The notes under the pieces: model-generated
Told to the model about the DNA's origin: nothing
Databases searched by the model: none
What the model saw: only the letters and a program-made list of their open reading frames with translations
Part shown: piece by piece, positions 6,047 through 49,223 of the stretch
Numbering within the stretch: position 1 is the first letter of the stretch
Layout: every line of letters begins with the position of its first letter
Position numbers and translations under genes: made by a program
DNA from: Blastocystis sp. Blastoise
Taxonomy: Eukaryota > Protista > Bigyra: Opalinata
Assembly (NCBI GenBank): GCA_039096225.1
Contig: JBBPEB010000014.1
Span: forward strand, 558,001 to 622,000
DNA: 64,000 bases
Direction: 5' to 3'

Positions 6047-6433
6047 TTAGGATTCCTTTACAGCAAGAACATATGCAATGCAATAATCTTGATCATGAGA
6101 TATACTTATTTGAATATTTGAAAGATGTAATGGATCTATGATGAGTTTTGTTTTTCCAGTAAAGGAGACAGATGGAATTCCAGAGAATGCATTGGTTACT
6201 TTGTGTTTAATAATGATTTCATTGAAATTCAAGCCATTGCAACCCACTGCCTTGTAAATAGCTTCTTTTGAGCACCATCTTGATGCTAAAAAACTAACTG
6301 GATCACGATGAGCGTAATAAATTGTTTGTTCTTCAACATTTAAAACTCGCTTTACAAAGCGATCTCCATGTCTTTCCAATATCTTAGATATTCTTGGAAT
6401 ATAAAGAATATCTGTTCCTATACCCCATATCAT
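6047..6433 (-). CDS. acpS: Holo-[acyl-carrier-protein] synthase (AcpS-type 4'-phosphopantetheinyl transferase)
   Basis: 128 aa, intronless; motifs GIGTDI, FLASRWCSKEAIYKA and ISISHDQDYCIAYV. Confidence 0.93.
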   Translation of the reverse strand: MIWGIGTDILYIPRISKILERHGDRFVKRVLNVEEQTIYYAHRDPVSFLASRWCSKEAIYKAVGCNGLNFNEIIIKHKVTNAFSGIPSVSFTGKTKLIIDPLHLSNIQISISHDQDYCIAYVLAVKES

Positions 6434-6443
6434 GAATGAAATA

Positions 6444-6597
6444 AAGTACCTGTACCAGAGTGACCTCCTGTACCAAAGTGACCCGTTTTTGTTTTGTTTC
6501 CATATTTACGGGAAAAAATATTTTTTCACTGTATTTAATAAAGATAAACATGTAAATAACATTTTTTCAATAAAAATAGTCTTTTTTCTGTTTAAAA
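6444..6597. repeat. Left TIR of the pogo-like element
   Basis: Reverse complement of 25751-25904 (mismatch at 6581); contains two direct copies of CCTGTACCA(G/A)AGTGACC at 6449-6465 and 6467-6483. Confidence 0.95.
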
Positions 6598-6711
6598 CAA
6601 AACAAGAAATTTTTTTTGACATAAATTAATAACAATTATAAAAAAATAAGTATATATATGATATATTATATAAAAAAAAAATAAAAAATATATATATAGA
6701 AAGGAATATCT

Positions 6712-8116
6712 TTATTCATTAACTATTATTTCATCTTCTGAAACAGTATTATCAAGTTTATCACTAAATTCATCCTCCATCATTTCTCTATTGATATTAG
6801 TTAAGATTTTATTTGACACTTTAGATGATTTTCTAGTTACTTTACTACGGGGACGATCATCAAAATCCTTGATAAACTCATTCTCATCATCAATAAGAAG
6901 TCTCGAAGCTTGCCATGCACTTAAAATATTTCTTCTTGTAAAAGCTTCACTAAAAGCATCCTCAGATGCTGCTAATAACGAATATCTATTTGTTGTTTTA
7001 TAATATCTTCTAAATTTTGATTTATATACATTGTATATAACTAAATCAAGCGGTTGAAAGACACTAGTAGTATTTTTTGGAAGTACAATTACATCAATAC
7101 GGTTATTCTCACATAAACTAAGAAAATCAGTATCATTACGTGTTGTATGAGCATCAAGAATAAGTAGACAATAATCATTAGTACTATCAAGATTCATATC
7201 TTTTCTCTTTTTATTAACATATGGAAGAAAAACATCTTGAATCCATGAGTATAACACATGTGCATTTATCCATCCAGACTTAGCAGACCATACTTTTATA
7301 TAGGACAGATTTTGCTTATCTATTTCTTTAATATTATAAGTATCTCGATCAACAACATAAGAGGAAGGAACTGCAGTACCATCAGCACAAATACAACCAA
7401 TTAGTGTTGTATGAGTAACACTATTACCTTGTTTTGTTATTGGTAAATGATCATTATCAACTGCAACAGTAACTCTTGATCTTTTATCACCAGGAGTAAC
7501 CCATGACTCATCCATGTTGAATATAAGAGAAGTTTCGATTTTTCTTTTATTTATTACATAATGAATATTCCTATACAGTATCTTTGCATCTTTCTTTGTT
7601 GGTCTAGCTTTTTCTTCATAATTTGTTAGTGGTCTTTTCAATAGAATATTATTCTTTTTAAGCAGCTTCCTTACATACCCTTCTGATACAGTAATCATAC
7701 AGCCAATACCGTTTCGACACCTTTCAATTGATCTCTTACGTATTTCTTCAGCTATTTCATTCTTCGAAGGACAGTTATTCACATTAATTTGTGACTTAAT
7801 CCATTCTATTATTTCTACTTCTTCATTTTCATTAAGAACATGTTGATTACAACGATTATTAAGTGATACATCTTCATTCAGTTTCTTTTCAGAACGTTTT
7901 ATTGTAGACGGAGACACTTTAGTGATAGCACTAATACTAGATAAGGATAATTTCTTCATACCATTCTTTCCATTAAACACTTTTCTTATAGCACAGGACT
8001 TCTTTCTAGGACTTCTTTCTTTCTCAACTTCAGGATGATTCAGAACTTGATTTAGGGTTAAATTAGAATCAAGAATATCAAGATCAGGAAGGGGAATACT
8101 AGTAGTATTATCATTT
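6712..8116 (-). pseudogene. pogo/DDE_1-type transposase, main body, separated from its start codon by the nested insertion
   Basis: HTH-like N-terminal region; catalytic motifs FNMDESW, LILDAHTTR and FQPLD with 35 residues between the last two aspartates (DD35D). The frame stays open upstream of the ORF-track start (7980) as far as the insertion junction. Confidence 0.92.
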
Positions 8117-8123
8117 GGAAAAA

Positions 8124-8198
8124 TGTTAGAAATACCCAGATTTCCCTATTGATTTGTATACATACCCAATTTTTTGTATGATTTGGTAGAAATACCCA
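8124..8198 (+). repeat. Left subterminal array: 3 copies of TG(T/G)TAGAAATACCCA-like motif, 30-bp period
   Basis: ATACCCA cores at 8132, 8162 and 8192. Confidence 0.9.
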
Positions 8199-9420
8199 AA
8201 AGTATCTGTTAACATTTTGATTTCATTGTCCAATCGTATTAATTTATATAATAACCGTGTTTATTAGATGTATTTATAGAATTTAAATTAATAAAAAATT
8301 AAAAGAATAATTCATATTATGACGTTAGGATTTGACAATTTGATCCAATCAATCGATTTTTAAGTTTCTATTAGAAGTTCGTTTATTGTACTATATAATT
8401 CTAAGAATTTGCTTTTTGGCAATTTTATCTATTTTTATTTATTTATATTCATTCCTTATTTTAATCAATATATACATTTATTTTGTTAAATAACTTTTAT
8501 TTATACTATTAATTCAATAGAATAACAATATAGACAAGGATCATAACATAATTGTCTGTAATTGTTTTAAAAATTAAGATTAGCAGACGTATAAGCCATG
8601 AACAGCTATGAAATAAACCTGATTAAAAAAGATAACATAGAATTACGTTATATAACATACTTTTAATTTACTGACAAATTAATTTACTCAATGAATACTT
8701 TATATAAGATCTATGTATTTATAGTATATGAGTTTATAAATATTATAAAGATGTTTTTAGAAAATAGAACTTATTTTTTGATAATTAACAGATTTGTTGA
8801 TTCTTTATATTTTCATATATACTATTACAATGTCATAGTTACATTGTTTAAAGACAAACATATAAATATTAATCTCAAATAACTGTTTTAAGAGTATGAA
8901 CTGTGAATTGATTAAGAAAAGTATTTAATAGATGACGAGATTCAAGTTAACAAGTTTTGTTTGGTATATGATATTAGTTTCTCGATACTATATCAAAAGG
9001 ACAGATAGTTTTATAATGGATCAAGTAAATGTCGAAATGGAAAATGTTGTTTAAAAATCATGAATGTGTATGTGTTGTGTTTGGTTGCTTATGTTGAGCA
9101 TACTGACCAGAATTCAGTTTAAAATAATAAACTACAGTTGTTAAAGTATTAATGATTGCTAAATAGACTCTGTATTTGAGTATATTTTGAAAATAAAAAA
9201 TGAATCTAAGTTTTAAAACTGCATTTAACTCAATTCTAACATATTTTGAATAAGATACACTGTTGAGAATAAAACAGATTACAACTCATCTCAGAAACTA
9301 TGAAGTTTTGAAGGATGAAGAGCTATAAATAATTTAATAAATGCATTCATAAGTGTAAAAAGAACATATAATTAAAATGTTTATTAAATAAAATATCAAT
9401 ATATATATATATATAAGGAA

Positions 9421-9489
9421 TGACTTATGTCAGGAGTTGAACCTGATTGCTATCTAGTTATGATAGCCTCTCACCTTATAGAGCATAAG
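9421..9489 (-). ncRNA. tRNA-like cloverleaf 1 (non-canonical; expression unknown)
   Basis: Minus strand folds as CTTATG / CTCT-ataaggtg-AGAG / GCTATC-ataacta-GATAGC / aa / TCAGG-ttcaact-CCTGA / CATAAG-tca; T-arm matches box B (GGTTCRANTCC). Confidence 0.7.
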
Positions 9490-9531
9490 AGTAATAATAA
9501 TAATGATAATAATATTAAAATACATAATATC

Positions 9532-9567
<36 letters not shown>

Positions 9568-9749
9568 TTATAAATAAATAAAAAAAAATTAAAATATATA
9601 TAAAAAAAAACATAAATAAGTAGTATATAAATTAATGAAATAATTAGTATAAATAAGAAATAAAAATGGGAAAATCTTTTTATTAATAAAAATAAATATT
9701 ATATTAATAAGTATAACAGATAGAAATAATTAAAATATGAAGAGAAGTA

Positions 9750-11990
9750 TGTATATATATATATATATATATATAGATATAAAAGATAATGAAAAATAAG
9801 AATTGAATATAGAAAAAAATTGAAGACAAGAATAAGGAGAATAAGGGAAAATAAATAAAGAAGAAGAAAAATATTAATTAAATGAGAAGAAGAAGGAATT
9901 GATTAGAAGGATAAAGAGCGAAAAGAATTTATATGTATAAAGAAGAATTAGAGGAAGAGGAAGTACATATAGATAATAAGATAAGAAGATAAAAAAAAAA
10001 AGAAAGATGGAGACTAGAAAGTCAAGTATAAGAGATAAAGAAGAAAGAATGTAGAGAAGAGTTAGAAGAACTATAAAGGAAAATCTATTAGAAAAGAAAT
10101 AAAAATATGAGGAGAATACACATAAGAAGAACAAGTGAAGATGTAGGAAAAGCAAATAAGACTATAATGTATATGGAAAAGATAATGAAAGTGAAAAACA
10201 TTAAAAATAAATGATATTCTGTATAATAAATATTGAAAATAATGAGATATAGAAAAATAGATGAAATGGAATGAAATGAGAATAATATAAAGAGGAAAGA
10301 ATTATAAGATATAAAAAGAAGATGCTGAAGAAGAAGGAAAGGAATGATATACAGAAGATATAGAAAGATAAGAAGCGAAAGATATAGAAAAAGTGGAAAA
10401 ATGATATGTAGAATAAGAAGAAGAAGAAGAAGGAGATAGAGAAGCGAAAGAAGGAGATGAAGGATAAATAGAAGAAGAAGAAGAAGGAGGAGGAGGAAGA
10501 GAAGGAGGAAATGAATAGAAGGAGGATAAGAAGAAGAAGAAGAAGAAGAAAGATTAATAGAATAAGGAGAGAAAGATGAATAGAAGAAGAAAGATGAATA
10601 GAAGAAGAAGAAAGATAATTAGAAGAAGAAGAAAGATAAATTAAAGAAGAAGAAAGATAAATAGAAGAAGAAGGAGGAGAAGAAGAAGGAGGAGAAAGAT
10701 GAATAGAAGAAGGAGAAGGAGAAGGATGAAATGAAGAAAAGGAGGAGAAGAAAGATGAATAGAAAAAAGAAGTAGAATGAGATAGAGAGAGAAAGAGACA
10801 GAGAAGAAGAAGGATATATGAAGAGAAGACAACTGAAAAGGAGAATAAGTAAAAGAAAGAAAAGAAGAATATATCGAAGAAGAAGAAGAAGAAAGAGAAG
10901 AATAAAGAATAACAAAAACAAGTAGAAGAAGAAGAAGAAAATAAAGAAGAATAAGGAGAATAATAATATAAAGACGAAGAAGAAAGATTAATGAAGATAT
11001 AAAAAAAGAAGGAGAAATACAAAAAAAGAAGAAGTACCACAGAAGAATATGTTGGAAAATAATGATAAATAGAAGATATACAAGATATAGAAGAAGAAGA
11101 AGATGCCGATAATATTGAAGAAAGAAATATAGACGAGGATAAAGAAGAATAAAGAGAATATGAATATATAGAAGAAAAAAAGTGAATAAGAATATATAGA
11201 AGAAGAATGATAAATAGAAGATATAGATGAAGAATAAAGAGATAAAGGAGGTACTGAAGATATAGGAGGAGAATAATATGGAGAAAATGTAGAATAAGAA
11301 TAATGATAAATAGAAGAGGAAATGTAGATGAAGGAGATAGAAAGAAAAAATATATACAGAGAAGAATGTATAGAAAGAGAAGAAGAAGAGAAGAAGAAAA
11401 ATAAGATTAAATAGAAGAAGAAGAAACAGAAAGAGATAGAGAGAAGGTGATTCAGAATTAAAATAAATAGAAGAAGGATAAATAGATGAAGAAGAACGAA
11501 AAAGGAATGAACAAGGAGACAAAAAATAAGGATATATAGAAGAAGAAGGAAAATAGAAACAATGTGTAGATGAATAATTAAAATGAATAAGAAATAAAGA
11601 AAGTATAATTGGAAGAAGAGGAGAAAAAGAAGTAATAATATAAGAAGGAAATGGAGAAGAAGAATAGGAAAAGGAAGAGTTGAAGGAAATGAAAAAGAAG
11701 AAGATCATGATAAAGAGAAGGAAATGAAGAGAGTAGGTAATGATAGGAGAAGAAGAACCAGTAATAATTAATGGAGGAAAGAAGAAAGTGAAGGAAAAAC
11801 TAGAATATAGAATAGAAGAACATGAAATAAAACATACTATAAAGTTATATTGAGAAAAACAATAACTGTTTTATGTAACATAAGAGTATAAGAATATAAA
11901 ATGAGTAGAAACTAGAAGAGTAGATGAATGGAAGAGAGAAGAGGAGAACAAGGCCAATTCAGGACAAGAGGAGAAAATAAGAATGAAGAA
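9750..11990 (+). repeat. GAA/AGA-rich low-complexity purine tract
   Basis: Degenerate (GAA)n and AGAT runs, with frequent stops in all plus frames. Confidence 0.85.
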
Positions 11991-12013
11991 AAACAAATAT
12001 ATATAGAAATATG

Positions 12014-12081
<68 letters not shown>

Positions 12082-13771
12082 AATAAAAAAGAGAAAAATA
12101 AAAATAAAATGAAATAATTTAAACTATAAGTCAATAAATATATAGAAGAAAGTAAATAATAAGTATATATAAAAATAATATTCAATAATTAAGAAATTTA
12201 TATAATATAACCAAAATATAAGAAGTTAATAATATATATATACTATACAAAAAAGAAACCAAGCAGTTATTGACCAGAAAAGCAAGAACTATATTTAAAA
12301 ACATTATAATAATAGATATGAACGTATATATAATAATATAATTATAATTATAAAGAAAATAAATAGAGAAAATATATACATCTACAATCTGAGTATAAAT
12401 CAAGCAAATCTATAACAACGATGACATTTGAGTTATGAAAGTTGTTTATTAAGCCAAGATATTTGTGCTACTTTGTGACTTAAGACCAATTTGTTGAGAC
12501 AATTAACAATTTTATTTTCTGGAAGCTTTAAAACCGATACAATTAACACAATCAATCCATTGTGACTCACTGAGAAAGCCTAAAGAAATAGTTTTGTATG
12601 GTGACGTCAGATCATCCCATTTAAACCACGACACAATAGCTTACCATCTAGCTCAACCACTTTACACCACTCAGACAAGCTCACCATAGAGAAAGAGAAC
12701 ATAGCACAACAGATCAATCTGCCAATGGAGACTGGAAGGTACTCTACTATACTCCTAGGGCCTATATATAGATAAATATATACTTAAAACATACAAAAAC
12801 GAAATTAATCATATTTTTTATATGATTATTGAAACTTCACTATAAATTAACTTATTAAATTTTATTGAAATCTTAATATTTCTACTTTTTATTATTTATT
12901 ATTTAATTTAAATACTTTAAACCGTTATTCTTACTCATGATGTCTTCTTGTTGTTGATGGAGTATGTATTTATGTAAATAAAATTAGTTAATTGATTAAT
13001 TATTTATAGAGTGTTACATAAAATGAAATTAATGGTTATGGTCATGAGGAAATCACTAGACTTGATGAAGACAACAAAAATTAGTCGATTATGTGATAGT
13101 CACTAGATTGCCTAAATGTGTAGAACTGTCAGAAAAGGTGAGTTTGTGTGTGTTTGAATTTAAATTCAACATTAGTTTGAATACGTATTTCACTAATTAA
13201 TTCAATTTTAGAGAAGTTACAAACACAATTGGTTTTTCTAGTTGATATATTGAGTTAGAATGTCGTTATTTTAATTTTCTATTAGTAATTTGAATTTAAT
13301 TATGACCTATATAAACTAAAGTTAATTATAATAGTTTTCTAGGTAATGTAGATTTGTCAAGGTTCTTTAAAAGTCTCAAGAGTGGTTTATAAATGTTACA
13401 AATGACTTTTAGTGTCAATCATGTTAATATAAACAGTAGAAATGCTTTTTAAGAGTATAGACAAAGAATGCATTGCGTGTTTATAGACTTCAAGGTGTTA
13501 TTGATGAATATTTATTTTTTATTTGTGTGTAGAATTGATCAATAGGATATATAGCAAATCAAAATAATGAATATGGTATTCTAAGTGAATGTAATTGTGA
13601 ATGTGTTGTGTGTTGAATATAGTAAACTAAAAACATTATAAAAAAGCGACTAGTAATGTATAGAGTTTATTTAATTACATGAAACTCAATATACCCTTTC
13701 ATACTGGTTCTAATGAATGAGAATATCTATAGAGAAAAATATTTATATTTTTTTATAAAAAATATAATATA

Positions 13772-13842
13772 TGACCCTAGATCAGGAATTGAACCTGATA
13801 ACAATCTATTAATGATTGCTACTAACCATATTCAGTCTAAGG
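13772..13842 (-). ncRNA. tRNA-like cloverleaf 2 (non-canonical; expression unknown)
   Basis: Minus strand folds as CCTTAGA / CTGA-atatgg-TTAG / TAGCAATC-attaata-GATTGTTA / TCAGG-ttcaatt-CCTGA / TCTAGGG-tca; T-arm 16/17 identical to cloverleaf 1. Confidence 0.7.
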
Positions 13843-13915
13843 AATATTAATTATTTGAATATAACCATGTATATATGTTTAACAGACAAAAACCCAAAAT
13901 ATAATTATATAATTA

Positions 13916-13947
<32 letters not shown>

Positions 13948-14054
13948 AATACTCCATTATACCTATTAATAATAATTTATATAATAAAAACCTTATAATA
14001 AAAGATAACTATTAATATGTGATAAGTATAATGTATCAGAGATATAAAAAGAGA

Positions 14055-14085
<31 letters not shown>

Positions 14086-14497
14086 TTAAAGCCATATATA
14101 CATAGGAGACAAGCTAAGGATATGTTCTATAAATAGTTAGAGAATAAAGAAAATGAATAATAATATATAAATAAATTTGGTTAAAATATTAATAAAATAT
14201 TACATAATAAGTTATAAAAAACTAATAATAGTATAAATATGTATATACCAAAAAGGTTGTATCATCATTAATTATAGTAGTTTCTATTAGGAGCTTGGAT
14301 TCTAAAATATATATAATAGCATATAGATGAATGACATATTTATAGAAAGAAATATAGATATATATTATAAAAGAAGTAATAAGCAGAGTAGAAAGTTATG
14401 TATTTATATTTACAGTATAAAAAAAAAAAAATAACAAAAAGAAAAAAACATATATAAATATAATATAAGAACATAATACTTATAAGAATAAAAACAA

Positions 14498-14536
<39 letters not shown>

Positions 14537-15531
14537 TTACCTGGACAATATCTTAATTTCATTAGCAATATATATATAATAATAATAGAAAATAGTAAAT
14601 ACATATATATATATATATAAAGTTGGAAAACATATAGTAAATTATTAGATATATTTATATATAAGAGAAGTAGACTTAATATATATTACGAAAAATAAAT
14701 TGCTCACATCAATAATGTTATATATATATATATATATATATATACATAATAACTATATGTATATAATCTTTATTTCAAAATAAATACAAAACGATATATA
14801 AATAAACGACAATTAATATACATATATACCACAATACATATACTAACATAATTGAATAAAACATACATAAAGAAGCGCTATGACTATTACTATATGTACG
14901 TATAATAAATTATAAGGTATATGGTATTTAAAAAAGATAATAAATAATAAAGTTGTAGAAAGATAAATGATATAAAAGAGTTAAATAGAAGAATAATTGA
15001 TATAAAATATTAAATACACAAAATATTATCTTTTATATTAAATAAAAAATACATAATATATATATATATAGAATAAGATGATATATATAATAATATATAC
15101 ATATTCAGAATTAAAGAACTATATTTATATAAATTCATAAGAAACATAAAAGGATGACTTACATATAACTATTTAACTATACATAATATATTATAATATG
15201 TATACTTACAGAATACTATATATAAGTATATATATTTATATATATATACTTTGAATATTAATATCAATGATATCTATATATATATATGTATATAAATGGA
15301 TATAAAATAATTACATATATATATATATTAAATATAATAAACATGTAAAAATTAATGCATAAAATATATATATAATGAATACAAATTAATTCTATAATAT
15401 CATATATAAATATATATATTTGTTCACTAAAGCAACGTTTGAATATGAAATAAAACAACTATATATACATATGTAAGCAAATAGACATATTATGGTAATA
15501 ATATAATAAAAATAAATAATACATAATAATA

Positions 15532-15579
<48 letters not shown>

Positions 15580-16509
15580 CTTATAAAACTAAATAAAACT
15601 AAATAAATAAACACATATAATGTGATAGTTATTAAATATATTTATACATATAGAATGAATATATAATAAATATTAATAATAATAATAATAATAATAACAT
15701 GAATAAGAAATAAAAAGTATAAATAATCTAAATAATGATAATTAGTAAAACGTATCTATTTGTATAAACTACATACTTTATAGATTAAAAATGAAAGAAG
15801 AATGAAGTATATAACTCAAAATGGAATATAATATATAATATAATATATAATATAATATATATATATACTAAAAAATAATCTTGAATATAACAATAACTAT
15901 TCACTATATAAAAAATGACATATAGCTAATAATAGAAATATAATATATATATAATCATTGTTTAAAAATAAAATAAAAGATAATAAACAACATAATACTA
16001 ATAAGAGATAAAGAATAATAGAAAAGTAATATAACATATATATTTACATAAAAAGAATATGTATTATGTAGTAATATCGATTATAGAAAGCAAACCATTC
16101 AATGGTAGTAATAATTCTATATATATATATAAGTTTAAGAATAAAAAACAATAGATTATAAAAAGAAAAAGAAAATGTATAACATAATATTATATTATAT
16201 ACAAAATATTCTAGACAAATTATTAAAATATAAATTAATAAATAGGAATATATATTTATATATACATTATGTGATTGCTAATAAGATAATACTTAAATAT
16301 TATAATAAATAATGTAATCTATATACATATATTATTAATATAAATATATATATATATACATATATAAACAAGAATATATGTAGATATATATACTATATGT
16401 ATATAATGAGTTGATTATCCAAGTGATCATTAATACGTCTATATATGATAATATATAATAAATAATATTATATATATATAATGAATAAAAGGAATAAAAA
16501 TGATAAATA

Positions 16510-16545
<36 letters not shown>

Positions 16546-16589
16546 ATCAACTATTGATGATGATGTTTAAGTTCTAATAAATATATATA

Positions 16590-17460
16590 CTTTTAACTGA
16601 ATATATGTAAAATAATCTTGACATAATCATTGTTTTGTTTCTGTTATACCTATAGAAGATATGATAATTATTATATATATATATATACCTTCAATAATCC
16701 AATGATACTATGAATTTGAAAGATAATAAAACTTCAAACAACTGATCATTCACCATTTCTATATAATAATATGAGGTATGTTGATAATAATAAAAATATA
16801 TACTTGTAAGATCATGGGAGAAGTCATTAAAATAATAAAAAGACCTAGGTAACATTCTTCTCAGTAAATGCAATTCATTTAATTTTTTCTTTCAAATTCT
16901 TCACTATATAATAATTAAATATAGAAACAAAATATAAAACAATATACTACTAGAGCATACTAAAACCAAAATTGCCAATCAAGAAATTATGACAAATATA
17001 GTTTCTTCCAATATTGAACAGCCAACGTCATCATGCTCTCTAAATCATGTTTCCAAACCTATATATATAATACTAATTCAAATAAACATATACCTGAAAG
17101 AATGAATCACCAATTGGCTTATTATTTGGATTTATTTCATTCCTAATCTATAATAATCTACCTAATAAAATATAATATAAATATAAATAATAAAATAACC
17201 TTCTAAATAATTAAATAATCCATATACTAATATTTAAAAAATATACTCTTTCAGCAGTTCATTTAAGCTGATGCTGAATAAGACTTTCACGGATTGAAGT
17301 AATTCTGAAAAACTTTAAGAATAGGGACCATATCAAAGAAGACTTTTTATCCCATACTTTGAATCTCTAGAAATTATTTTTAAAACTTGTTCACTGAATC
17401 ACAAAACAGTTTTTATCAAAGAGGTTGCTTCCGCTATTTAGGCTGTTTTAACCCTGTTTC
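16590..17460 (-). pseudogene. Decayed multi-exon gene relic inside the 17.4-kb insertion
   Basis: Series of host-style minus-strand introns (~16650-16688, 16759-16803, 16904-16947, 17059-17093) separating GC-richer blocks. One exon is open (IRNEINPNNKPIGDSFFQ); its neighbours contain stops. Confidence 0.5.
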
Positions 17461-18139
17461 CATCCTCAGAATGATTATTTCTTGAGATTCAAATACTGCT
17501 TTATTTCATATATTGTCATTATAAACATATAAAATGAATCTACGTATGTTTTCTAGTCATAAATATATATATTATATAGTTTACTCTCTTCAAATATTTT
17601 GTTTTATATAGTAATCAGTTGATCAATTGGTTGCGTATTGTTTAGATATTCAGAAAAAGCTATATCTAGTTTCAAATCAACTCTAAAGGTCTTGGTGAAC
17701 AATACTGATGAATCTAAGGTATATAATTATTTTACATTTTCTCATTTTGTTTATTCTTTGCTATATTTATTTCATGTCTATGCTATTAGTATGTTTTTAT
17801 CATTCACATAACATATTTATTTTGTTTTCATTAGTATTATTATTTTTATAATTGAATTAGCTCCTACTTTTCTATCTAGTTGTTTCTTTAATATATATAT
17901 ACTTTTATCTATTTAATTTATTCTACGTATTTATTTCTTTAGTAAAACCAATCAAACTGAAGCACAACCTGGGAATCAGATTGCAATGATTCAAGTCTTT
18001 ATTAAGGTATATATGTATTTAATAATATATTTAGTTTGTTTTAACTGACTATTAATAATATATATGTTATTTTTTGTCTTTATAATATTATTATTATTCT
18101 ATTTTTATAATATTATATATTCTTTAGATTTATTGGTAT

Positions 18140-20830
18140 TAATTCTTCATTCTTCATTCTTAATTCTTCATTCTTCATTCTTCATTCTTCATTCTTCATT
18201 CTTAATTCTTAATCTTAATTCTTCATTCTTTATTGTTAATTCTTCATTCTTAATTCTACTGTACATCTTACTCTAATTTTTCTTTTTTTACGTATAGATA
18301 TAAACTTTTCTTTTCTTTACTATTACGTCTTCACAAATTCTACTATTACTTCTTCGTCCTTCTCATTATACTTCTTATCCCTATCCTTTTCATTATTCTT
18401 CATTCTTCTTATCCTTTCATGATTCTTCTTTTTCTTCTTACTTTACTTCTTCTTATGCTTCTTTCACCTTTACATCTTATTTTACTTTTCATTATTCTTC
18501 TTCTCTACTATACTTCCTTTCCACTTCTCCTTCTCATTATAGATTTACTTCTTGTTCTCATTATTATTGTTTTTTCTTCTTTTATTATCCTTCTACATCT
18601 TCTTATTCTTATTTTTTCTTTTCTTCTTCTTCTTTTCTTTTTTCCCTCGTTATCATTTCCATTCCATTTTGTTCCTTTTTTTCCTTATTCTCCTTGCAAT
18701 TCTTCTCCTTTAGCTTCTTCCTTTTTTCCTTCTTTCCTTCATTCTTCTATTTCTACTTGTACTTCTACTCATATTTCTTCTACTACTACTTACTCTTTTA
18801 TTTTTTCTTCTATTTCTACAGCTACACTACTACTAATAATACTTCTTATTATTCTACTTATATTTCTGCTTATATATCTACTTGTAGTTCTGCTTTTACT
18901 CCAACTCCTACTCGTGCTTTTGCTTCTACTACTTTATTCTTCTCATTCTTCTTATACTTATACTTCTCCTTGCTATTATCTTTCTCTTTCTCTTTCATCT
19001 TCTTCTTTTTTTCTATATTCAATTTCTCATTCTTCTTCTTCTTTTTCACTTTTTCTTATTCTTCTTCTCATTCTTCTTCTCATTTTTCTTCTTCTAATGA
19101 TTCTCATTTTCTTATTCCTAATACTTATATTTATACTTCTGTTTCTACTACTATACTTTTATTTATTTATTTCTCTCCTTCTACGTCTACTTTTTTGTCT
19201 TCATCTCTATCTCCTTTTCTATATTCTCCTTCTATTTATACTTTTACTTTTCTTTATCCTTCCTCTTGTCCTTCTTCTCTTTCTTATCCTTCTTGTTCTT
19301 CTTGTTCTTCTTGTTCTTGCTCTTCTTCTTCTTGGCATTCCTTCCTCTTCTTCTTGTCCTTCTTCTTCTTCTTCTTCTTCTTCTTGTCTTTCTTCTTGTC
19401 CTTCTTCTTATCCTTCTTCTTATCCTTCTTCTTATCCTTCTTCTTGTCCTTCTCCTTCGTCTGTTTCTTTTCTTTCTCTTTCTTCTCTTTCTTCTCTTTA
19501 TTCTCTTTCTTCTCCTTATCCTCTTTGTCCTTCTTATCCTTCTTCTTATAATTTTTCTTCTTCTCCTCTTTTTTTCCTTCTTGTCCTTCTCTTTCTCTTT
19601 CCTCTTTTACCCCTACTTTTCTTTTTCCTTCTTATCCTTCTTCCTATAATTGTTCTTCTTCTCCTCCTCCTCTTTGTCCTTCTTATCCTTCTTATCCTTC
19701 TTATCCTTCTTATCCTTCTTATCTTTCCTATTATCCTTCTTATTTATACTTTGCTCCTCTCCTTCTCCATCTTTTTATTCTCTTCTTGCTACACATTTTA
19801 TTCTCATGTTTCTTCTTGCTCCATATATTCTTCTCTGTCTTCTTCTTCTTCTTCTTCTTCTTCTTCTTCTTCTCATTCTTCTTATCATTTTCTTTCTTTT
19901 TCTGCTTCTTCTTCGCTTTATAATTTCACTTTTCCTTATTCTTCTCTTTCTTTTTCCTTCATTTTTTCTCGTTCTTCTCTTTCCTCTCCTCATTCTCTTT
20001 GTCATTCTTATCTTCTTATCCTTCTCCTTCTTCTTCTCTTTCTTCTCTTTCTCTTTCCTATTCTCCTTCTTATTCATATGTTGCTCCTCTCCTTCTATTC
20101 TCTTTTGAGTCTCTTCTTTTTCCACTTTTATTCTCATATTTCTTCTTCTATACCCACATATTATCCCTTCTCCGTCTTCTTTTTCTTATATTATCCTTAT
20201 CCTTGTACTTCTACTTCTAATCATTCTCATTCTACTTATCCCTACCTTCTACTGATGTTTTTCTTTTTATGCTTATTCTTGGTTTATTCTTATTTTCTTC
20301 TCTTTCTTCTTTTTCTTATTCTTCTCGTCCTTATCTTTCTCTTTCTTGTTCTTATCCTTCTATTTCTCCTTCTCCTTGTTCTTCTTCTTCTCCTTGTTCT
20401 TCTCCTGTCTTTCTTCTTCTTGTCCTTGTCCTTGTCCTTGTCCTTATCCTTTTTATTCTTATTCTTGCCATTTTCATTGTCCTTGTCCTTCTTCTTGTCC
20501 TTTTCCTTCTTCTTGTCTTTCTTTTTGTCCTTGTCCTTGTCATTCTTCTTCTTCTTGTCCTTGTCCTTGTCCTTGTCCTTCTCCCTCATCTTATTCTTAT
20601 TCTTCTTGTCCTTCTTGTCCTTCTTGTCCTTCTCCTTCTCCCTCATCTTATTCTTGTCCTTGTCCTTGTCCTTGTCCTTGTTCTTCTATATCTCCTTGTC
20701 CTTCTACTTCTACTTTTTCTCTTTCTCATTTTACTTCTGCTGCTACTTTTTTATCAACTTCTATTATCATTCTTCATCTACGTATATTACTACCACTTCT
20801 TATTATAAATTTCCTATTCCTATTATTCTA
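18140..20830 (-). repeat. TTC/CTT-rich low-complexity tract (GAA-rich on the minus strand) with (CTTGTC)n sub-repeats
   Basis: Minus strand reads as interrupted K/D/E/R-rich peptides (DKDKDK); plus-strand L/F/S ORFs are stop-free by composition. Confidence 0.85.
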
Positions 20831-22352
20831 AGAATCGTTTTTTTCATTCAATTGAAGTTAAATTCTCATTTTTTAAAACGCTATACACAATATTTGATAT
20901 ATTGAATTATATATATATTGATATATAAAACAATAAATAGAATTGTGTATATATGTTACTTTTATTAGTATGAAGAATAACATATATAGAAAAACATATA
21001 TTATATATATATTGAACATATATATATACTTAATCGGATATATTAGAATTCTATAATATAGATATAAATAAGCATATGTATAGAATGCTATATATATATA
21101 TATATATATATATAGAATTGTATATGTATGTAGAATAGATATACATATGTATTGAATAGTATACATGTATACATATATATATAAATTTATATATATTAAA
21201 TATTGTGTAGAAAATAGAAATTCTAATATATTAATATATTTATGTAGAATCATGTAATATATATATATATTCTTGATTAAAAATATTAATAGTTCATATG
21301 ATATGTCTAATTTGTTTTCTTTTATTCTTTCTTTTAGCACTATATATTGTTTAGTATTATCTTTTAAATCATTTAATTTATTTTTAACACTTTTTTAATA
21401 ACTTATAATCTATTTTTTGCTTTTTGTTTCATTTGATATATAATATATACAAACGATTGCATTTCTATAAATATGTTATTATAAGAGTATAATTTATTAT
21501 TTAAGTTTGCTCAGAAGAGTCGTGACAACAATATCTTTTGACTACCCATCCAGAAACATCATCACCTTGGGAATGGAACATAAACGTGTAATTTGAAATG
21601 TAACATCTGTAAACAAGTCTTCTTTTTTATGTTTTTTTGTTTTTTTATTCGATACCCTAGCTTTTACATTTATAGTAAAACTACATTCTCTAGTTGAAAC
21701 TTTTTACATACATAATTTTGACTCCATATGTTTTTACAGTCTCAAATTTTGTTATTTATTCACTATCTTTAAACTTATGATAGTTCACCTTAATCAAACA
21801 AAAACATATTTCCACTTCTTGTTGTGGCTGAACTGAATCAGTTACCAAATTATAAAACAAAAATAATTAACATGAATTTAATATTGATTTACAGATATCT
21901 TTGTTGTTAAATATGCAGTAATTAAAGCTTTAATCGTCTAAATATGTCAAAATTAAAATAAAGTATATTTTTGAGATTCTGGACAACAAATTTCATTTTT
22001 ATAGTGATTAATAAATGAAAAATCATGAAAAATTACATTGTAGTTTTTAAAAGCTTTATTCGAGAGCAATACAATATATTATTACACTATAAATAACCCT
22101 AATCAGTCGATATAAGTGTCTGAAGTATTTATACTATCCTTAATCCAAAAATTTGAGATAATTATATTTAATTTGTAAATAAAAATGCTTATCTTAAATT
22201 AAATAACTACTTTTCTAAATTATTATAATAATCTATTAAAATATTTCTTATGTTTTAATTACTACAAAATTTTTATGTAAGCTTTAATAAAGAAAATATA
22301 AATATATTCTTGAGTATATTTTTTCTAATAATGACAAAAGAAATAAAAAGAA

Positions 22353-22389
22353 CAAGCGTTTCACGACTGGCTACGCCAGCCTACGCTTG
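22353..22389. other. Isolated GC-rich nested hairpin
   Basis: Outer stem CAAGCGT/ACGCTTG encloses CTGGC-TAC-GCCAG, in a very AT-rich context. Confidence 0.6.
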
Positions 22390-22499
22390 AATCTAAATAA
22401 AAAAAAAAATAGTTTGTAAAAAAATGTCTTTTCATTATTTTAAATTATTAATTCAAATTTAATAATATCATTAATGACTATTTCATTAAATAAAACTAA

Positions 22500-23300
22500 A
22501 AATTAAAATATAAAACAAAAATTAAACTACATTCAAAAATAAATATATTTAAATACTTTGGAAACTTTTATTATTGTACATAATATATAGTTTATAAAAC
22601 AAATAAGTTATTTTTAAAAAACTCTAAAAGACTTTAACGTTTTTAAATCACATATCCACTTTTATTTTAACTAATTTAAATATTCATATACACATATATT
22701 TAATTTGCTATTTTAATTTGTAAAGAATAACTTGAATCTCTTTTATTTAAAGTCACAATTACAAAAAAATGAGTTCTTTTGAAAGATAAAAAACATTCTT
22801 TAAACAATAATATTCTTTTATTTAGTGGAGAATAAACGTATTATACGGTTTTAGAAACAATTAAAATCTTTTTACCCATTTTAACATTCATATCAAACAA
22901 TCAACCACATTTAATTAAACTAATTTTTAATATTTTATATTCTATAATAAGTCTATTTATTATTTTAATAAAAAGTGACCTGAATCTCTTGACTTAACTA
23001 TTGTAATTCTAAAGAATCAATTTTTTTGAACAACTTAAAATGTTTATTTATTGTAGATTTTAATATAAAACACTTAAAAAACACTCTATACATACTTATT
23101 ACAACCATTTTCAAAAAATAGACTCATTTTAACATTTTGGTCAAACACATAACCACCTTTATTTCAAACAATTCTTTTATTATTATAAACATTACACACT
23201 CTAATACTCATTTTTATAAAAAGTGACTTGAATCTCTTCACTTAAGACAGTCAAACAGACAATTCAAAACTATTTTACCCTTTAACTTCATTATAAAGTG
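22500..23300. repeat. Diverged tandem repeat, 248-bp period, about 3 copies
   Basis: TGAATCTCTT anchors at 22733, 22981 and 23229; CATTTTAACATT...CAAACA...AACCAC blocks at ~22877 and ~23125. Confidence 0.75.
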
Positions 23301-23499
23301 ATAATATTTACAGAATTGCCCTAATATATGATTTAGGCCACATTTAACTACTTTTTACAAAATTATGAGTCAACATGTGCATATATTTACACACTCGTCA
23401 TACTTATTTTTGACTATTTTTTTGAGAAATGCAATACATATAAGGTCTAGTTATCAAATATGTAAAAATTAATTGTCAAATATGAATTTGATTTGTCAA

Positions 23500-25000
23500 C
23501 TTTCAGAAAATTTTTAGAAAAACGATTTTTCAATTTTCAGTTTTTTAACATGTTATACTATTGACTCTACTGAACTCATTTTTTTATTAATTTTAAATAT
23601 TAAAAATAATATTATTAATATGTGTTATTCTCTATATTTATTTGTTAAAATTATAATAAATAATAAAATATTGACTGAGAAATTAAAACGATAAGCTATA
23701 CCCTTTTTTCAAAAAAAATAATTTTTATGTTTTGCATATATAATTTTTTATCTCAAAAGTTATTTTATATTTTGATAATATTTTTATAAATTTATAAACT
23801 ATAGTTTGTCTAGTTTATAAATAAGTTTTATTTATTTTTTAAAAATTAATATTGATGGAGGAATTGTCAAAATAAACTATAGTATCAAAAATGTTTTCTT
23901 TTTTTAAACGATTTATTTCACTAATTAAAGACAATTAAAAACATATTTATTTATTTAAAGCATATTTATGACATTTACAACTCATAATGACTCATAACTG
24001 ACTTTTTAAAACAAACATTGTCTGTATCAGTTCAACATGTTGTCCTAACTTTTTCAAATAAGTCACATTCAATGTCCATAAATGATTTTAAACACAAATT
24101 AAAACGTTTTAAGAGTTTATTGAGTTAACATTGTCTGGTGATCTGTTGTCACAGTCTTTTAAAAACCATAAAAAATTATAAAATATGTTTATTTTGGTAT
24201 GTTGTTATTAAATATGAAGTCAAATATCAAATATATTTATAAATGATGAAATTATTGACAACAAACAAATGAAAAATTTTTGAGATAAATTTCAAAAGTC
24301 ATTTTTTTATTGAGTTCAACTCTTGTCTCCTGTGACTTCATTTTTTAATATTTTAAAAAAGTGACAAAAACGGATGACATTTAAGTTTTGTAATATCTAA
24401 ATAAGCTTTAACTTTTTTATTTTATAAAATATTGACTGAGATCTAGTGATCACAAAATATACCCTTTTTAGAAATTTTTCATTTTTATGTTTTTGATATA
24501 AATTAATATATCTCAGTCAATATTAAATATTAAACAAAAATATAAAAAATGGATGACATTTAAGTTGTCCAGTTTACAAATATGTTTTTACTTTTATTAT
24601 ATGTTGAATATTGACAGAGATCTTGTGATCACAAAATTGGGTGTCAAAGATGAAAAATTTTTAAAGCAAATATTTCTCTTTTAATAGATATTACAAAAAT
24701 ATAAAACATGTTTATGACGGATATAGAGTTAGATAAATACATTAAAGCTCAAATAAGTTTATAAAGAAGGAATGTGTTGGATATCAGTTTGTCTTTTGTC
24801 GTTATTTAAAGGAATTATTGTTGTTTCAGAGTAGTTGAGGTCATTGTCATGACAATCGAAACCATTTTAGAGTTTATGGTTAGTGATGTGTGTATTGATA
24901 TGTTGTCAAGTTGTAAATATAAACAAATCTACCCGTCAAAACTATTTATAAGACCAACCCGTCAATAAAAGTTAATTTTATAAAAATAAATATAGAGTAT
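23500..25000. repeat. Diverged ~760-bp duplication with ~180-bp sub-repeats
   Basis: AAAATATTGACTGAGA at 23665/24426; TATACCCTTTTT at 23697/24458; GGATGACATTTAAGTT at 24372/24551. Confidence 0.7.
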
Positions 25001-25381
25001 GTGAAGTGATATAGGAAAAAATATAAAACAATAAAAAATGAAAAACGAAAAATAAGTGTTTTTATAAAAATGAAGAATATTGGATAAAATAAAAATAATC
25101 CAATAATTTTGGTTAAAATTTTGTGCGAAAATGGTTTTTTGCGTTTTTTAGCCAGAAATTTAGAGTTTTTGAAAAATTTCTTTAACAGTCATTTTCAGAA
25201 TTGTGTTCCGGTTTTTATGATGTTATTTTTATTTTATAAAAGTTAATAACAAAGTCAATAATAGTTAAAGTGTGTGAGACACCGTACTTTTGGGCTGCTA
25301 AATTAAGGATATTAATTTTAATTGGTTTATAAGAATTTGTGTTTTCAAACCACCAATCGTTTAGAGTCTAAAATAAACAGT

Positions 25382-25515
25382 TGGGTATTTCTACCAATTT
25401 TGTAAAAATTTTGGGTATTTTAACAAAAATTTTGAAAGATTTTGGGTATTTCTAACAATTCGATTTTTTTTTGGGTAGGTTAAAATAATTATGGTTTTTT
25501 TGGGTATTTCTAACA
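25382..25515 (-). repeat. Right subterminal array: 5 copies of TGGGTATTTCTAACA-like motif, ~30-bp period
   Basis: TGGGTA cores at 25382, 25412, 25443, 25472 and 25501; inverse of the left array. Confidence 0.9.
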
Positions 25516-25522
25516 ATGCCTC

Positions 25523-25554
25523 TTATCATTTTCGGATATATTTTCTATATTCAT
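25523..25554 (-). pseudogene. Detached 5' end (start codon) of the pogo-like transposase
   Basis: ATG at 25554-25552 gives MNIENISENDN, which joins in frame through one TSD copy to TTSIPLPDLD at 8107. Confidence 0.88.
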
Positions 25555-25750: not shown

Positions 25751-25904
25751 TTTTAAACAGAAAAAAAACTATTTTTATTGAAAAAATGTTATTTACATGT
25801 TTATCTTTATTAAATACAGTGAAAAAATATTTTTTCCCGTAAATATGGAAACAAAACAAAAACGGGTCACTTTGGTACAGGAGGTCACTCTGGTACAGGT
25901 ACTT
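25751..25904. repeat. Right TIR of the pogo-like element
   Basis: Reverse complement of 6444-6597. Confidence 0.95.
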
Positions 25905-27173
25905 TAATATAAAAAGCACTAGAGAATATTTTCTATTTGTTTTTTTTTATGTACCAAATATGGTTTAGTTTTTAATTATTATAAAATATTCTTTGAGACA
26001 CTCATAAGTTATGTTATCTATTATAAATAGTATTGATAACAAATAGTGTCATTTTGTCGTTGAAGTTATAATTACCATAATACTCTTGGCTATAGATATA
26101 TTTGAATGCAGAGAAAATGCATTTGAAATACTACAAAGCTTCTATTTGTTATTTATCATGCTTTTTCTCAAATTATTGAATTTGAAAAGTTGATAGATTT
26201 TATAGATTTATATTTAAATATATAAACAATCTTATATTAAACATATTTTATTATTTTAAGAACTGAAAAAATGAAGATATTTGATAATTAACGTCGTCAT
26301 CTTCATTTTTATTTTATATTTTTAAAATCCACATGTTTCAATTTGATTCACAATAAATATTTTTTCATGAATAGAACAAATAATGTTTAATCCTTATATT
26401 TAAAAAGGAATAGCGAATTATAATCAAATAACATCAATATGTAGTATTTACTCACAAAATACAAATAAAACCATAGTATAAACCTGAATTCAATAAATTG
26501 CATAACAAATAAAGGAGAAAAGTATAGTAAATCAACCCAATATATAAAAATGATAAACATAAACAAGTATATTTATGAAACTTCTTCTTAAGAATCCTTA
26601 TATGGCAATAGCATCACTAAAGAAATGAATAACGTAGACACCAACACCAAATAAGCCTACATTTAACAGGGAGCTTAATTACAAAGAATGAAGGAAATCA
26701 TAATTTCATAGAGAAAACAATAAAAAAACGCGAATTAATAATAAAATAATTATGAAAAATCAGAAAATAAGTATAATCTATGATAGAATGAGAAAAAGGA
26801 TATATGTTGGAAACGAAGAGATTCAGAAGCACCACTCTTCATCCACATCCAGTTGAAAAATGAGCCAATGTAGCTCATTCTAGAATATTTAGAAAACGAT
26901 GTGTGATTAAAAATACGGTTTAGGTTTAGCAACAGCTTCAGGTTGTTGACTATTGAGGAATTGCACTAAAAGACTAGAAAATAAACACAGTATATCATAC
27001 TAGTAAATGATTAGAGAATAGGCAATAAAAGAGTAAAATGGAAAAAACGGAAAAACTACCTGTAGAGAAAACTATATTTGTGATTATATCTGTCTTTCTT
27101 TGTTTTCTTTGAATAAATCAATTAGTTATATATATCCATTAAATAGTGAGTTTAAAAGATACACAATTAGAAG

Positions 27174-29587: not shown

Positions 29588-34511
<4,924 letters not shown>

Positions 34512-45624: not shown

Positions 45625-48600
45625 ATGACCAAACGTTTATTTGATTTACCTAGATTCGAGACAAAGCAAAAGAGTAAACATCTTATTTGTTGTATCAAAT
45701 ATATAGCAATCCCAAGGTATGATGACCATCATGAGTTAGAAAATGATGCTTTGAATACTTCTACATTACTCGAAGGATTGAATGAAGATGTTAGTGATAA
45801 AAATCTTAGTGAAACAGAATCAATTTATGATTTACTTATGAATAATATTGTGAATCAGGTAATTTTTTATAAATTTTTATAAATGTATTAATTAATAATG
45901 TTAATTTGTTTATTTTATTTATATATATTCATATAGAAACGATTATCAAAGAATAATGAAACAAATCAATCAAAGATAGAAGATATCATTTATTCTTGTT
46001 GGTGTGAATTGAGAGTTAGCACAGAAAAAATAAAAAGACTATATGAATTAGCTAATAATATAATCAAACTGTTGAATCCTGATAGTGATTTATTGTTTAT
46101 TCCAAAGAATGGGCAAGATATAATCAGAAAGTATTGTAGAACTCATTCAGAAACGCCCATTCATAAGAATATATATGTATGTAGTAAGTGTAATTCATTA
46201 ATATCATTCAACGGTGGACGAAACCTTCTAGCTCAAGAAAAAAAACAATGCAATAACAAAGACTGTAATCTTAACTTAGGTATATATATATTATACTATT
46301 AAAAATCATCTTTATATTTTCAAATATATATGATGATTACTACCTTTATAATATATTTTTAATAGTAAATTTCTTTATAATACATTTCTTTATAATATAT
46401 TTCTTAAGGCATATTTCATTTTATTACATTTCTTAATATTTTTTTCTTAATAGTATATTTCTTATTATTATATTTCTTATTATTATATTTCTTATTATTA
46501 TATTTCTTAATAGTATATTTCTTTGTAATGTGTTTCATTATAATATGTTTCTTTACATTTTATATCTTAATAATAAATTTTTTTATATATTATATTTCTT
46601 TATAATATATTTCTTAATAATGTTTTTCTTAATATATATTATATTAACATTTAATATTTATTATTTATGTCATGATAAAGGATCAAAGGTATCAATTATT
46701 CCATTAATTCCAAGAATTCGATATATGGTTTCTTCGATGTCTTTAATGGAAGATATTTCTTATTATACAAAAGAAGAAATACAGTATTATTTATCTATGC
46801 CAATTGAAAGTCTACCTAATACTCTTCCTTCATATATGTCAGGAAAAAATTATAGAAGATATATAGAATCAGTATTAGATAATGGTGACATTTTTCTTCT
46901 ATTCGATATGACATGTGATGGTATATGTGTATTCTCAAATCCTATTATAGAAAGTAATAAATCTTCATTTCCTATACTTCTTAAACTACTAAATTACAAT
47001 AAAGAACGAATAAATGATCAACGTGTATTCTGGACTTATTGTATTACTAAAGAATCATTATCAAATACAATTCTTACTATATTAATGAAAGAGTTGTCTA
47101 TTCTATCTTCTGGTATTGAAATGGATGTGTTTATAAATGGGAGAATTGAGAAAAAAAGAGTTGTAGCTGTATTATTAAGCGCTTATGGCGATTGCGCTGC
47201 TGTTACTAATGTTGGAAGTTTTACCGGTTCTTCTTCTTCATATCCTTGTAGGTATTGTGAACTCTTTTGGAATAGAACAAATGATGATTTTCATCTGGGA
47301 ATTAAATGTGCATATGAAAGTATCAAAAATTATGTTACTATTGATGATACAAATAAAAAACTTCTGAATATTCGTTATCCATCTATTTCTCTACCATTAT
47401 ATAATTCTCATAATTCTTCATCCTCACCTCCTCAGGAAGATACTATTATTACTAGTCAAATTCTTATTGAATCTATTTCTGATGATCATATATTTACAGA
47501 TGCATTCGACACAATAACATATAATCAAAGAACTAAAGAATCTATTCAAAATAATCGCGAATTATCATCTGAAAATGGATCAAATATTGGAATAAAGCAA
47601 AAACCTAGTGTTTTTGAATCACTAACTTATTTTGATGCATCTACAAGCTATACACTTGATCCTATGCATTTATTCAACAATGTTTGTACTCTTATCTTAA
47701 ATCTCTTATTCCATTATAATGTTACAGATTATACTACTAAATTAGCTAAAAATGATAGTATAAATCCTCAGAAACTACTTATGACATATTGTCTAGATGA
47801 TGAGAATATGTCTATTCTTAATTCAAGAATACTAGCAATCAATACACTCTACAATGATAATGAATACGAATTTAGATATATATTGAATGAGAAAAAATTC
47901 TACAATATGTCCTCACATACTAGAATTTTTTTTACTTCATGTATTCTTCCTCTTATTACTTTAGATTTCAGTGCTTCTGATTCTCCACTTATTTTACTTA
48001 TTGATCCATTAGCAACTATTATACGTAATGTCTACATATATCGTGGAAATACTTCACAGAATATTTTAAATATGTTTAAAGATCAATGCTATATATTCTG
48101 TTTTTTATGTGAACTCCTGCTTCCAAAAGAAATTTTGAATACACAGTTACATCTTATTCAACATCTTTATGATTCTATTATAAACTCTGGTTCTATATAT
48201 TATGCTTCCACTTTTCAGTCAGAAAGATTCTATTCGTTTCTTAAAAGAGTATCCTTTGGAAGAAAAAACTTTAACGAATCATGTATTCGATGCGTAATTG
48301 AGAGGGAGGTACTAGATATAAATATGAAAAAATACTCCAACGATTATATATTAGATGAATTCTCAATAGATTCTAATAGTATTACTAATAATGATAATGA
48401 ATCTAGAATTAGTATTGATATACATCCTCAACAAATAATATCTGATACTTTTAATAGTATTATTATTAATTATAATGGTATTGATACAGTGAAAGGAATA
48501 AGAGGAATTGATAAAATTAAATTGTATAAAAATGATATGAAAGATATAGCTAAGATTATTCTATCATCAAATGATAGTATACTTAAAGAACGTCTCTATC

Positions 48601-49223
48601 AAGGCATAGATATCAATGAAATTATATATGTTGATGATATTCTAAATGATCCTTCCTTGTGTAAAATAATTTTTAATAATTTAGAAAAACTAGAAATGAC
48701 ATTTTACTCTGAGATAATATTAAATGATTCAATAATATTTAATTCTTCTGATATTGACCAAGGAATAGAAACAATTGACAATTCATATATTATGTACTTC
48801 ACTTATGACACAATAAATAGTCATAAAGTTCACTTAATTAAAGCTCTATGTTATATCCAAATTGGATCTTTATTATTGATAAAAAAGCATGAATATCCAT
48901 ATGCACGAGTATCAACAACAGGATTGTATTACATAGTTAATGATTCTAATGAAGTTCTGTCAAAAAGAAAGGAATATGTATCTAGTTTCATATCTATATC
49001 TGATATTGAACCTTTTAATTTAATAATTGCAGATGTCCATGAGTATATCAATCGAAATAATGATGAAACATATGCAGAGGTATATATATATATATATCTT
49101 TTTAATAAAATTTCTTTAATATAGGGAAATGAGAAAGACGATCAAGATAATACTGGAGTAGTTGATGGAAGAACAGTTATCACGAATACTGTGTTTATAA
49201 CTCGACATAATAATACAATATGA
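45625..49223 (+). CDS. CACTA/EnSpm-type (TnpD-like) transposase, ~1024 aa, 4 exons
   Basis: Exons 45625-45858, 45937-46279, 46681-49079 and 49125-49223 join in frame (the exon 3 acceptor is an AAG, so less certain). Motifs CSKC...CNNKDC, FDMTCDG, GDCAA...YPCRYC, DPMHL and HLIQHLYDSIINSG...FQSERFY. Confidence 0.9.

Follow-up and report, generated by a model that had tools for sequence, protein, structure and literature searches.

The window, i.e. the whole 64-kb stretch of Blastocystis sp. Blastoise DNA that was analysed, has a GC content of 23% and carries spliced eukaryotic genes. Its features include an ACPS phosphopantetheinyl transferase gene (6050-6433, minus strand) with its start codon 8 nt away from the outer inverted repeat described below, a xylose isomerase-like spliced gene (55405-56708, plus), which is a candidate plant-sugar enzyme of putative bacterial origin, and a 1105-codon Asn/Ser-rich low-complexity host frame (30245-33562, minus) with no Pfam match. 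A long transposase-like gene (45937-49124, plus) with weak RYYR-CCHC and DUF4218 matches is presumably CACTA/Tnp21-like. We infer that the host falls within the low-GC tortoise-associated Blastocystis clade of PMC12129017, to which the available part of that study attributes 21-23% GC and longer introns.

A 19.5-kb unit that the first-pass annotation had taken for a single giant element was resolved into two nested ones, a 2.05-kb pogo-type transposon and a 17.4-kb insert within it (Table 1), since the transposase gene is split and an exact 9-bp duplication stands at the split. The transposase frame of the outer element (DDE_1, 6712-8145) is 98% identical to Blastocystis sp. Blastoise proteins (NCBI) forming a cluster of 8; five of these eight sister transposases are 475 aa long and, together with the 453-aa P0010, begin with ten residues that are missing from the window frame. 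With its TA-bounded inverted repeats and DDE_1 transposase, this 2-kb element resembles pogo-type Tc1/mariner transposons, but it is the landing site only and the cloverleaves described here are not part of it. A set of 52 metagenome loci with distant DDE_1 relatives corresponded to the outer element only, and yielded no cloverleaf by either the strict scan or the model R1 presented below. As a separate observation, one annotated protein (P0015) starts with seven residues encoded in the left end of the insert and continues into the transposase body (8215-8100, minus), its annotation splicing from the insert into the split transposase gene.

Table 1. Features of the nested elements and of the insert, in window coordinates.
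Feature	Position	Strand	Remarks
Outer element, left inverted repeat	6442..6597	plus	arm includes TA; end 6444 or 6449
Outer transposase body (pogo-type DDE_1)	6712..8116	minus	separated from first codons by the insert
Target site duplication (9 bp), left copy	8108..8116		exact 9-mer
Inner insert, Mutator/Foldback-like	8117..25522	none	17.4 kb, carries both cloverleaves
Insert, left composite terminus	8117..8199	plus	3 short-motif copies
Candidate intron	8236..8279	plus	44-nt GT..AG skip in the X1 contig ending at 8117
tRNA-like cloverleaf 1	9421..9489	minus	stem spans 9489-9424; discriminator position held by U (9423); AAC as central triplet
U/C-rich tract 1, degenerate (CTT)n	9790..12010	minus	upstream of cloverleaf 1
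GC-richer island	12480..12770		TGACTCA (12563) and TGACGTCA (12602); candidate promoter
tRNA-like cloverleaf 2	13772..13842	minus	acceptor of 7 bp (13842-13775); U at 13774; TAA as central triplet
C/T-rich tract 2	18254..20905 (tract about 18.1-20.9 kb)	plus	883-codon stop-free low-complexity frame
Insert, right composite terminus	25381..25522	minus	5 short-motif copies
Target site duplication (9 bp), right copy	25523..25531		exact 9-mer
Outer transposase, first ten codons	25523..25554	minus	match start of intact sister copies
Outer element, right inverted repeat	25751..25906	minus	155/156 complementary

The two ends of the insert match each other in inverted orientation (left terminus against 25381-25460, 74% over 82 columns), and their short motif has a single stray match elsewhere in the window; two further matches in viral contigs were taken as chance. 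As judged from its sequence, the anatomy of the insert, with a 9-bp duplication and composite motif-bearing ends, is that of Mutator/Foldback elements such as Tm1, for which the same duplication length, composite ends of repeated motifs and non-autonomous members are described (PMC3169594, in part), and the insert is likely mobile DNA. It differs from the Pack-MULEs covered in the available part of PMC6431247 by its size (17.4 kb versus 7 kb at most), and from both Pack-MULEs and Mutator/Foldback elements by a non-coding cargo with two tRNA mimics. No MULE transposase was found in cis by standard-code, code-6 or spliced-ORF searches of the insert, which would be mobilised in trans by a Mutator transposase; MULE domains number 26, 4 and 15 in three low-GC tortoise Blastocystis strains (PMC12129017, supplement S5, in part). 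Additional copies of the insert are hinted at by the X1 contigs, which are RNA by guess only: where compared (6440-14200), they differ from the insert by 4-8% (7/117, 22/279, 8/169 and 8/176 positions), and one terminates exactly at 8117, the insert's left end. The right part of the insert also contains three pairs of direct duplications (110-125 nt, 70-75% identical, 22633-24637).

The insert holds no recognisable protein gene and is essentially non-coding. Among the 13 frames scanned, the 12 standard-code insert frames matched no protein family above the curated cut-off, and spliced ORFs predicted in four non-repetitive interior regions did not exceed 70 aa, while the control recovered a 288-aa Nudix gene. 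An alternative code (TAA/TAG read as Q, code 6) was rejected, with no Pfam match in the 28 frames chosen from 64 listed. Two degenerate (CTT)n tracts, on the minus (tract 1) and plus (tract 2) strands, face outwards. The longest frame of tract 1 is ordinary relative to chance (0.44-0.64). By contrast, the 883-codon frame of tract 2 goes beyond random frameshifting (p 0.002-0.006, post hoc); it is Leu/Ser/Phe-rich and spans several repeat phases, the other frames having 17 and 7 stops, and no homologue of it was found. Coding on the purine strand of both tracts was discarded, as the phase shifts every 15-440 nt and the best phase still contains 73/729 and 70/867 stops.

One X1 contig spans 12565-12740 of the GC-richer island, and the skip at 8236-8279 hints at spliced non-coding transcription, antisense to the cloverleaves and to the start region of the outer transposase. 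None of the seven X1 contigs among the matches listed spans a cloverleaf, and such contigs cannot show absence; the depth over 9289-9547, which comes with loose ends at the (AT)n run, was set aside. Host-like intron candidates were predicted on the minus strand upstream of the cloverleaves (12289-12379, 17059-17093 and 17162-17246). Others lie on the plus strand, at 17719-17942 and from 18007, without an open frame. That candidates occur on either strand near 17.5 kb (17059-18127) possibly reflects divergent non-coding transcripts.

Cloverleaf 1 had been described in the first-pass annotation as a 66-nt four-arm fold of the minus strand with 6/4/6/5 Watson-Crick stems, and this description holds: the minimum-energy fold of 9489-9424 has stems of 6, 4, 6 and 5 bp with every pair Watson-Crick, and is identical to the centroid for both the 66- and the 69-nt spans. 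As also reported at first, the acceptor directly abuts the D stem with 0 nt between them and the variable region counts 2 nt (3 nt when the central stem is taken as 5 bp). The fold further displays an 8-nt D loop with GG, a 7-nt central loop and a TTCAA T loop, followed by TCA. Its product before CCA is predicted to measure 67 nt. Depending on the register chosen, 0-4 junction bases are unpaired in the cloverleaves. A strict cloverleaf scan of the 64-kb window with a TTCRA loop returned two sites, this one and 13841-13776, while none of 100 dinucleotide block shuffles contained any. In a local structure scan (149 scanning windows on an 80-nt grid), the top 16 were AT-rich hairpins only and the cloverleaves were not ranked there.

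The second site, cloverleaf 2, allowed the fold to be evaluated by comparison. The motif GGTTCAANTCC has only two matches in the window, at cloverleaves 1 and 2, whose cores align without gaps (48/66 identical), better than in 200 of 200 shuffles. Within this alignment, each of the 20 shared pairs is a standard one in either copy, with 4 double changes, 2 single changes and none broken, versus 33-39% pairing in slid controls. The 10 stem changes between the copies thus kept every pair, an outcome reached by random stem substitutions in 3 of 400,000 trials starting from either copy (393 of 400,000 for 5 changes). This covariation is drawn from two sequences only, with a floor of 36/500 for the tool's shuffle control. 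The T stem and the D-loop GG are invariant, and both copies have in common the GG, A14, U33, A32, U37 and the U before CA. The D stem counts 3 bp plus a 2-nt linker in the shared ungapped register, and 4-5 bp in each copy's own best fold. By contrast with the cores, the flanks (30, 60 and 120 nt on each side) were no more alike than shuffles in 6/6 tests, nor were the 900-nt downstream regions. This combination of a kept core and unrelated flanks suggests an old duplication whose core was retained for its pairing, although the stem compensations may date back to ancestral genes.

Model R1 detected no third cloverleaf in the window, the next candidate scoring 15 bits versus 96-99, and a 12-nt match to cloverleaf 2 at 9150 was discarded as it has no cloverleaf fold. 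Exact-pattern scans returned no cloverleaf in viral or metagenome contigs, nor did another exact pattern in prokaryote genomes, such patterns missing diverged relatives. The possibility that the fold arose by chance in AT-rich DNA, or that it is a tRNA pseudogene or SINE head in decay, draws on the (TA)n run following cloverleaf 1 and on its modest folding energy with 6-nt flanks on each side (z -1.93, 9 of 200 shuffles at least as low), where the centroid also differs. We nevertheless regard it as barely credible, given that such a cloverleaf was seen in none of 100 shuffles and that two diverged copies retain every pair in a non-canonical register. Where a tRNA-derived SINE would have many dispersed copies with decaying stems and target duplications of their own, the window shows two copies, with intact stems. 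Judged from these two copies, the cloverleaf is a real, conserved and non-canonical RNA structure within an unusual carrier.

Both copies depart from canonical tRNAs. With a canonical acceptor register (7 bp and a 2-nt connector), 4/7 pairs form in either copy, versus 6/6 (copy 1) and 7/7 (copy 2) in the connector-less register. The variable region of canonical tRNAs measures at least 4 nt. The anticodon-like loop contains U33, but position 37, termed the 'universal purine' in the available part of PMC7954030, is a U in both. Three tRNA-defining features are therefore failed, i.e. the connector register, the purine 37 and the length of the variable region. When set against cytosolic tRNA-Val(AAC) and tRNA-Leu(UAA), the cloverleaves share the T arm, U33, A14, G18-G19, the 7-nt loop and the overall length, and they differ by an acceptor 2 nt out of register without the 8-9 connector, a 2-nt variable region, U37, A32 and a 6-bp central stem. 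The parts that make up the tRNA elbow (5-bp T arm, TTCRA loop and D-loop GG) are present in both. A low score in ARAGORN had been expected for copy 1: the program instead called it tRNA-Val(AAC) at the default threshold, albeit through a forced register with 4/7 acceptor pairs, and needed -ps80 to recover copy 2, a setting that gave 27 calls, most of them spurious. Rfam returned no tRNA or mascRNA match, either for the whole window (E<=1) or for both loci (E<=10; 4 and 9 weak matches). The earlier statement that this is not a standard tRNA is thus borne out by the failure of the canonical register in both copies and by the lack of an Rfam tRNA at E<=10.

These observations bear on whether the cloverleaves could be atypical decoding tRNAs (Val-AAC, Leu-UAA) built on a compact core and used by the host or for the low-complexity frame. 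There are compact tRNAs that decode with a 6-bp anticodon stem, and the cloverleaves offer a 7-nt loop with U33, a 6-bp anticodon stem and ARAGORN calls, in an insert whose Leu/Ser/Phe-rich 883-codon frame is longer than chance. tRNA-Pyl and mammalian mitochondrial tRNA-Ser(UCN) have, like the cloverleaves, a 6-bp anticodon stem and a shortened connector and variable region. Those tRNAs are charged and possess a 1-nt connector and a purine 37, both absent here, and the cloverleaves lack the CUA or UGA triplet. Moreover, U37 and A32 occur in both copies, the discriminator is U and not A, no long variable arm is present for Leu, and the corresponding codons are minor ones in the 883-codon frame (TTA 23/829, GTT 15/829), itself without homologue. 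Decoding is unlikely for these two copies, which combine the loss of the 8-9 connector, a 2-nt variable region and U37, and we consider this explanation improbable.

The retained parts are those read by RNase P and RNase Z, and the lost ones those serving charging and decoding, which argues that both cloverleaves are probably functional, non-decoding tRNA mimics. Such a mimic had been proposed for cloverleaf 1 at first reading, and the two-copy covariation supports it, as does a junction resembling that of mascRNA, which itself has no linker residues (PMC11693755). Human mascRNA and menRNA lack the eight linker residues of tRNA, are processed by RNases P and Z, gain CCA and are not aminoacylated (PMC11693755). 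They share with the cloverleaves a four-way junction where the D arm comes right after the acceptor, the D-loop GG and T loop, a longer anticodon-like stem and a U before the CCA site. In contrast, the cloverleaves are longer (67-69 nt versus 57-58 nt), with a D arm of 14-16 nt and a 7-nt loop where mascRNA/menRNA have a reduced D arm and a compact loop, and they have neither the ENE and A-rich tract upstream nor an Rfam match. Since MALAT1 occurs in jawed vertebrates only (PMC10869381, in part), any likeness to it would be convergent, and the cloverleaves are not members of the mascRNA family, though their function may be mascRNA-like.

Our preferred, if tentative, reading is that the cloverleaves may act as mascRNA-like RNase P/Z cut signals within long transcripts of the insert. 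What is directly observed is the fold with its compensatory conservation, the kept elbow and absent connector, and the nested position; every later step is conditional. Minus-strand Pol II transcripts would traverse pyrimidine-rich stretches before entering each cloverleaf. The elbow formed by the D-loop GG and the T loop would be read by RNase P, either RNA-based or PRORP, which would cut at 9490/9489 and 13843/13842, and the RNase Z cut would fall past the U at 9423 and at 13774, CCA being then added. The upstream RNAs would thereby end without poly(A), small RNAs of 70 and 72 nt would be released and the 4.3-kb RNA between both cloverleaves would possibly be excised, while the cloverleaf RNAs would escape synthetases and ribosomes owing to U37, A32 and the lack of a normal core. 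In mascRNA, RNase P and RNase Z do read the T arm and the GG, in a molecule devoid of linker residues, with a U before CCA and not aminoacylated (PMC11693755). A protein-only RNase P domain and the subunits p30, Rpp21, Rpp38 and Rpp40 are listed for all three low-GC strains (PMC12129017, S5, in part); no literature on Blastocystis with PRORP and RNase P was found.

As the first-pass annotation had noted, a U/C-rich tract lies about 300 nt upstream of cloverleaf 1 on the same strand (about 9790-12010), and its suggestion that this cloverleaf is the 3'-end signal of a long U/C-rich transcript is as yet unproven. The pyrimidine fraction upstream reaches 0.77 for copy 1 and is weakly rich for copy 2 (0.58), versus 0.52 downstream, and no cloverleaf lies past tract 2 (18.1-20.9 kb, plus). 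In MALAT1, an ENE and an A-rich tract stand directly upstream, and their triple helix protects the upstream RNA (PMC8457004, in part). No A-rich tract occurs in the 150 nt upstream of either copy, the last 15 nt being AU-mixed with at most 6-7 A per 10 nt, and hence no obvious protection of the upstream RNA like that of the MALAT1 triple helix. Also against cut signals, the only splice in the data (8236-8279) is on the opposite strand, and the 16-nt D arm and 7-nt loop have the dimensions of tRNA rather than of mascRNA.

Each cloverleaf might instead be a stand-alone RNA polymerase III gene for a 70-nt uncharged mimic without a role in processing a long transcript, which could for instance act as a decoy for proteins that bind tRNA or serve in defence. 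Perfect B boxes occur in both copies and nowhere else in the window, and a T6 run stands 10 nt past the TCA of copy 2 (chance 0.04), where a Pol III gene would end, both of which speak against the cut-signal reading. At copy 1 the terminator is weak, with a T4 at about +28 (chance 0.38). The B-box bases are however uninformative between the two readings, because the RNA elbow demands the same bases. The internal A box is degraded (6/8 and 5/8 consensus positions): A14 and GG are retained, but G10 is gone in both copies and T8 in copy 2. Unrelated flanks would suit self-contained genes, and no triple-helix tract would be necessary. A Pol III gene fits almost as well, and we hold it to be the main rival, a possible, if somewhat unlikely, account. 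What favours cut signals is the damage to the A box, together with the pyrimidine-rich regions and intron candidates upstream.

Alternatively, the cloverleaves could be passengers, either odd host RNA genes or TFIIIC boundary sites, captured by a Pack-MULE-like element for which they have no function, and perhaps without any function now. Mutator elements do capture host fragments between their ends (PMC6431247, in part). Low-complexity DNA makes up 11.8-12.7% of these genomes (PMC12129017, in part), so that the tracts need not be element-specific, and as the cloverleaf search covered the window, host copies may lie outside the insert. Passengers are nonetheless unlikely: pairing is unbroken in both copies, a point in favour of current or recent selection on the RNA, since a DNA site would need no stems, and the insert spans 17.4 kb without a recognisable host gene, versus a median intergenic distance of 645-719 bp (PMC12129017, in part).

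A literature search, with few subscription papers within reach, found no description of such cloverleaves. The term 'tRNA' is absent from the main text of PMC12129017 and, in the available part of its supplement, occurs in file 10 only (a domain table, 206 places); it is also absent from the available part of a giant-transposon review (PMC6431247). Linker-less tRNA mimics that recruit RNases P and Z have been described from the jawed-vertebrate MALAT1/NEAT1 loci (PMC11693755 and PMC10869381, in part).

Taking the cut-signal reading to its full extent, a mascRNA-like system would have evolved independently in a stramenopile, on a 17-kb Mutator/Foldback transposon, with mimics punctuating a transcript from which RNase P/Z would free a 4.3-kb CU-rich RNA and two small RNAs, a scenario that we find conceivable but doubtful. 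If true, such convergence in a protist would make this way of ending long RNAs a general solution, and the cloverleaves would be a natural experiment on the tRNA parts required by the processing enzymes. It would also reveal an unusual giant transposon, a 17-kb Mutator/Foldback-like element with structured RNA as its conserved cargo, and hence a DNA transposon carrying a processed non-coding RNA operon.
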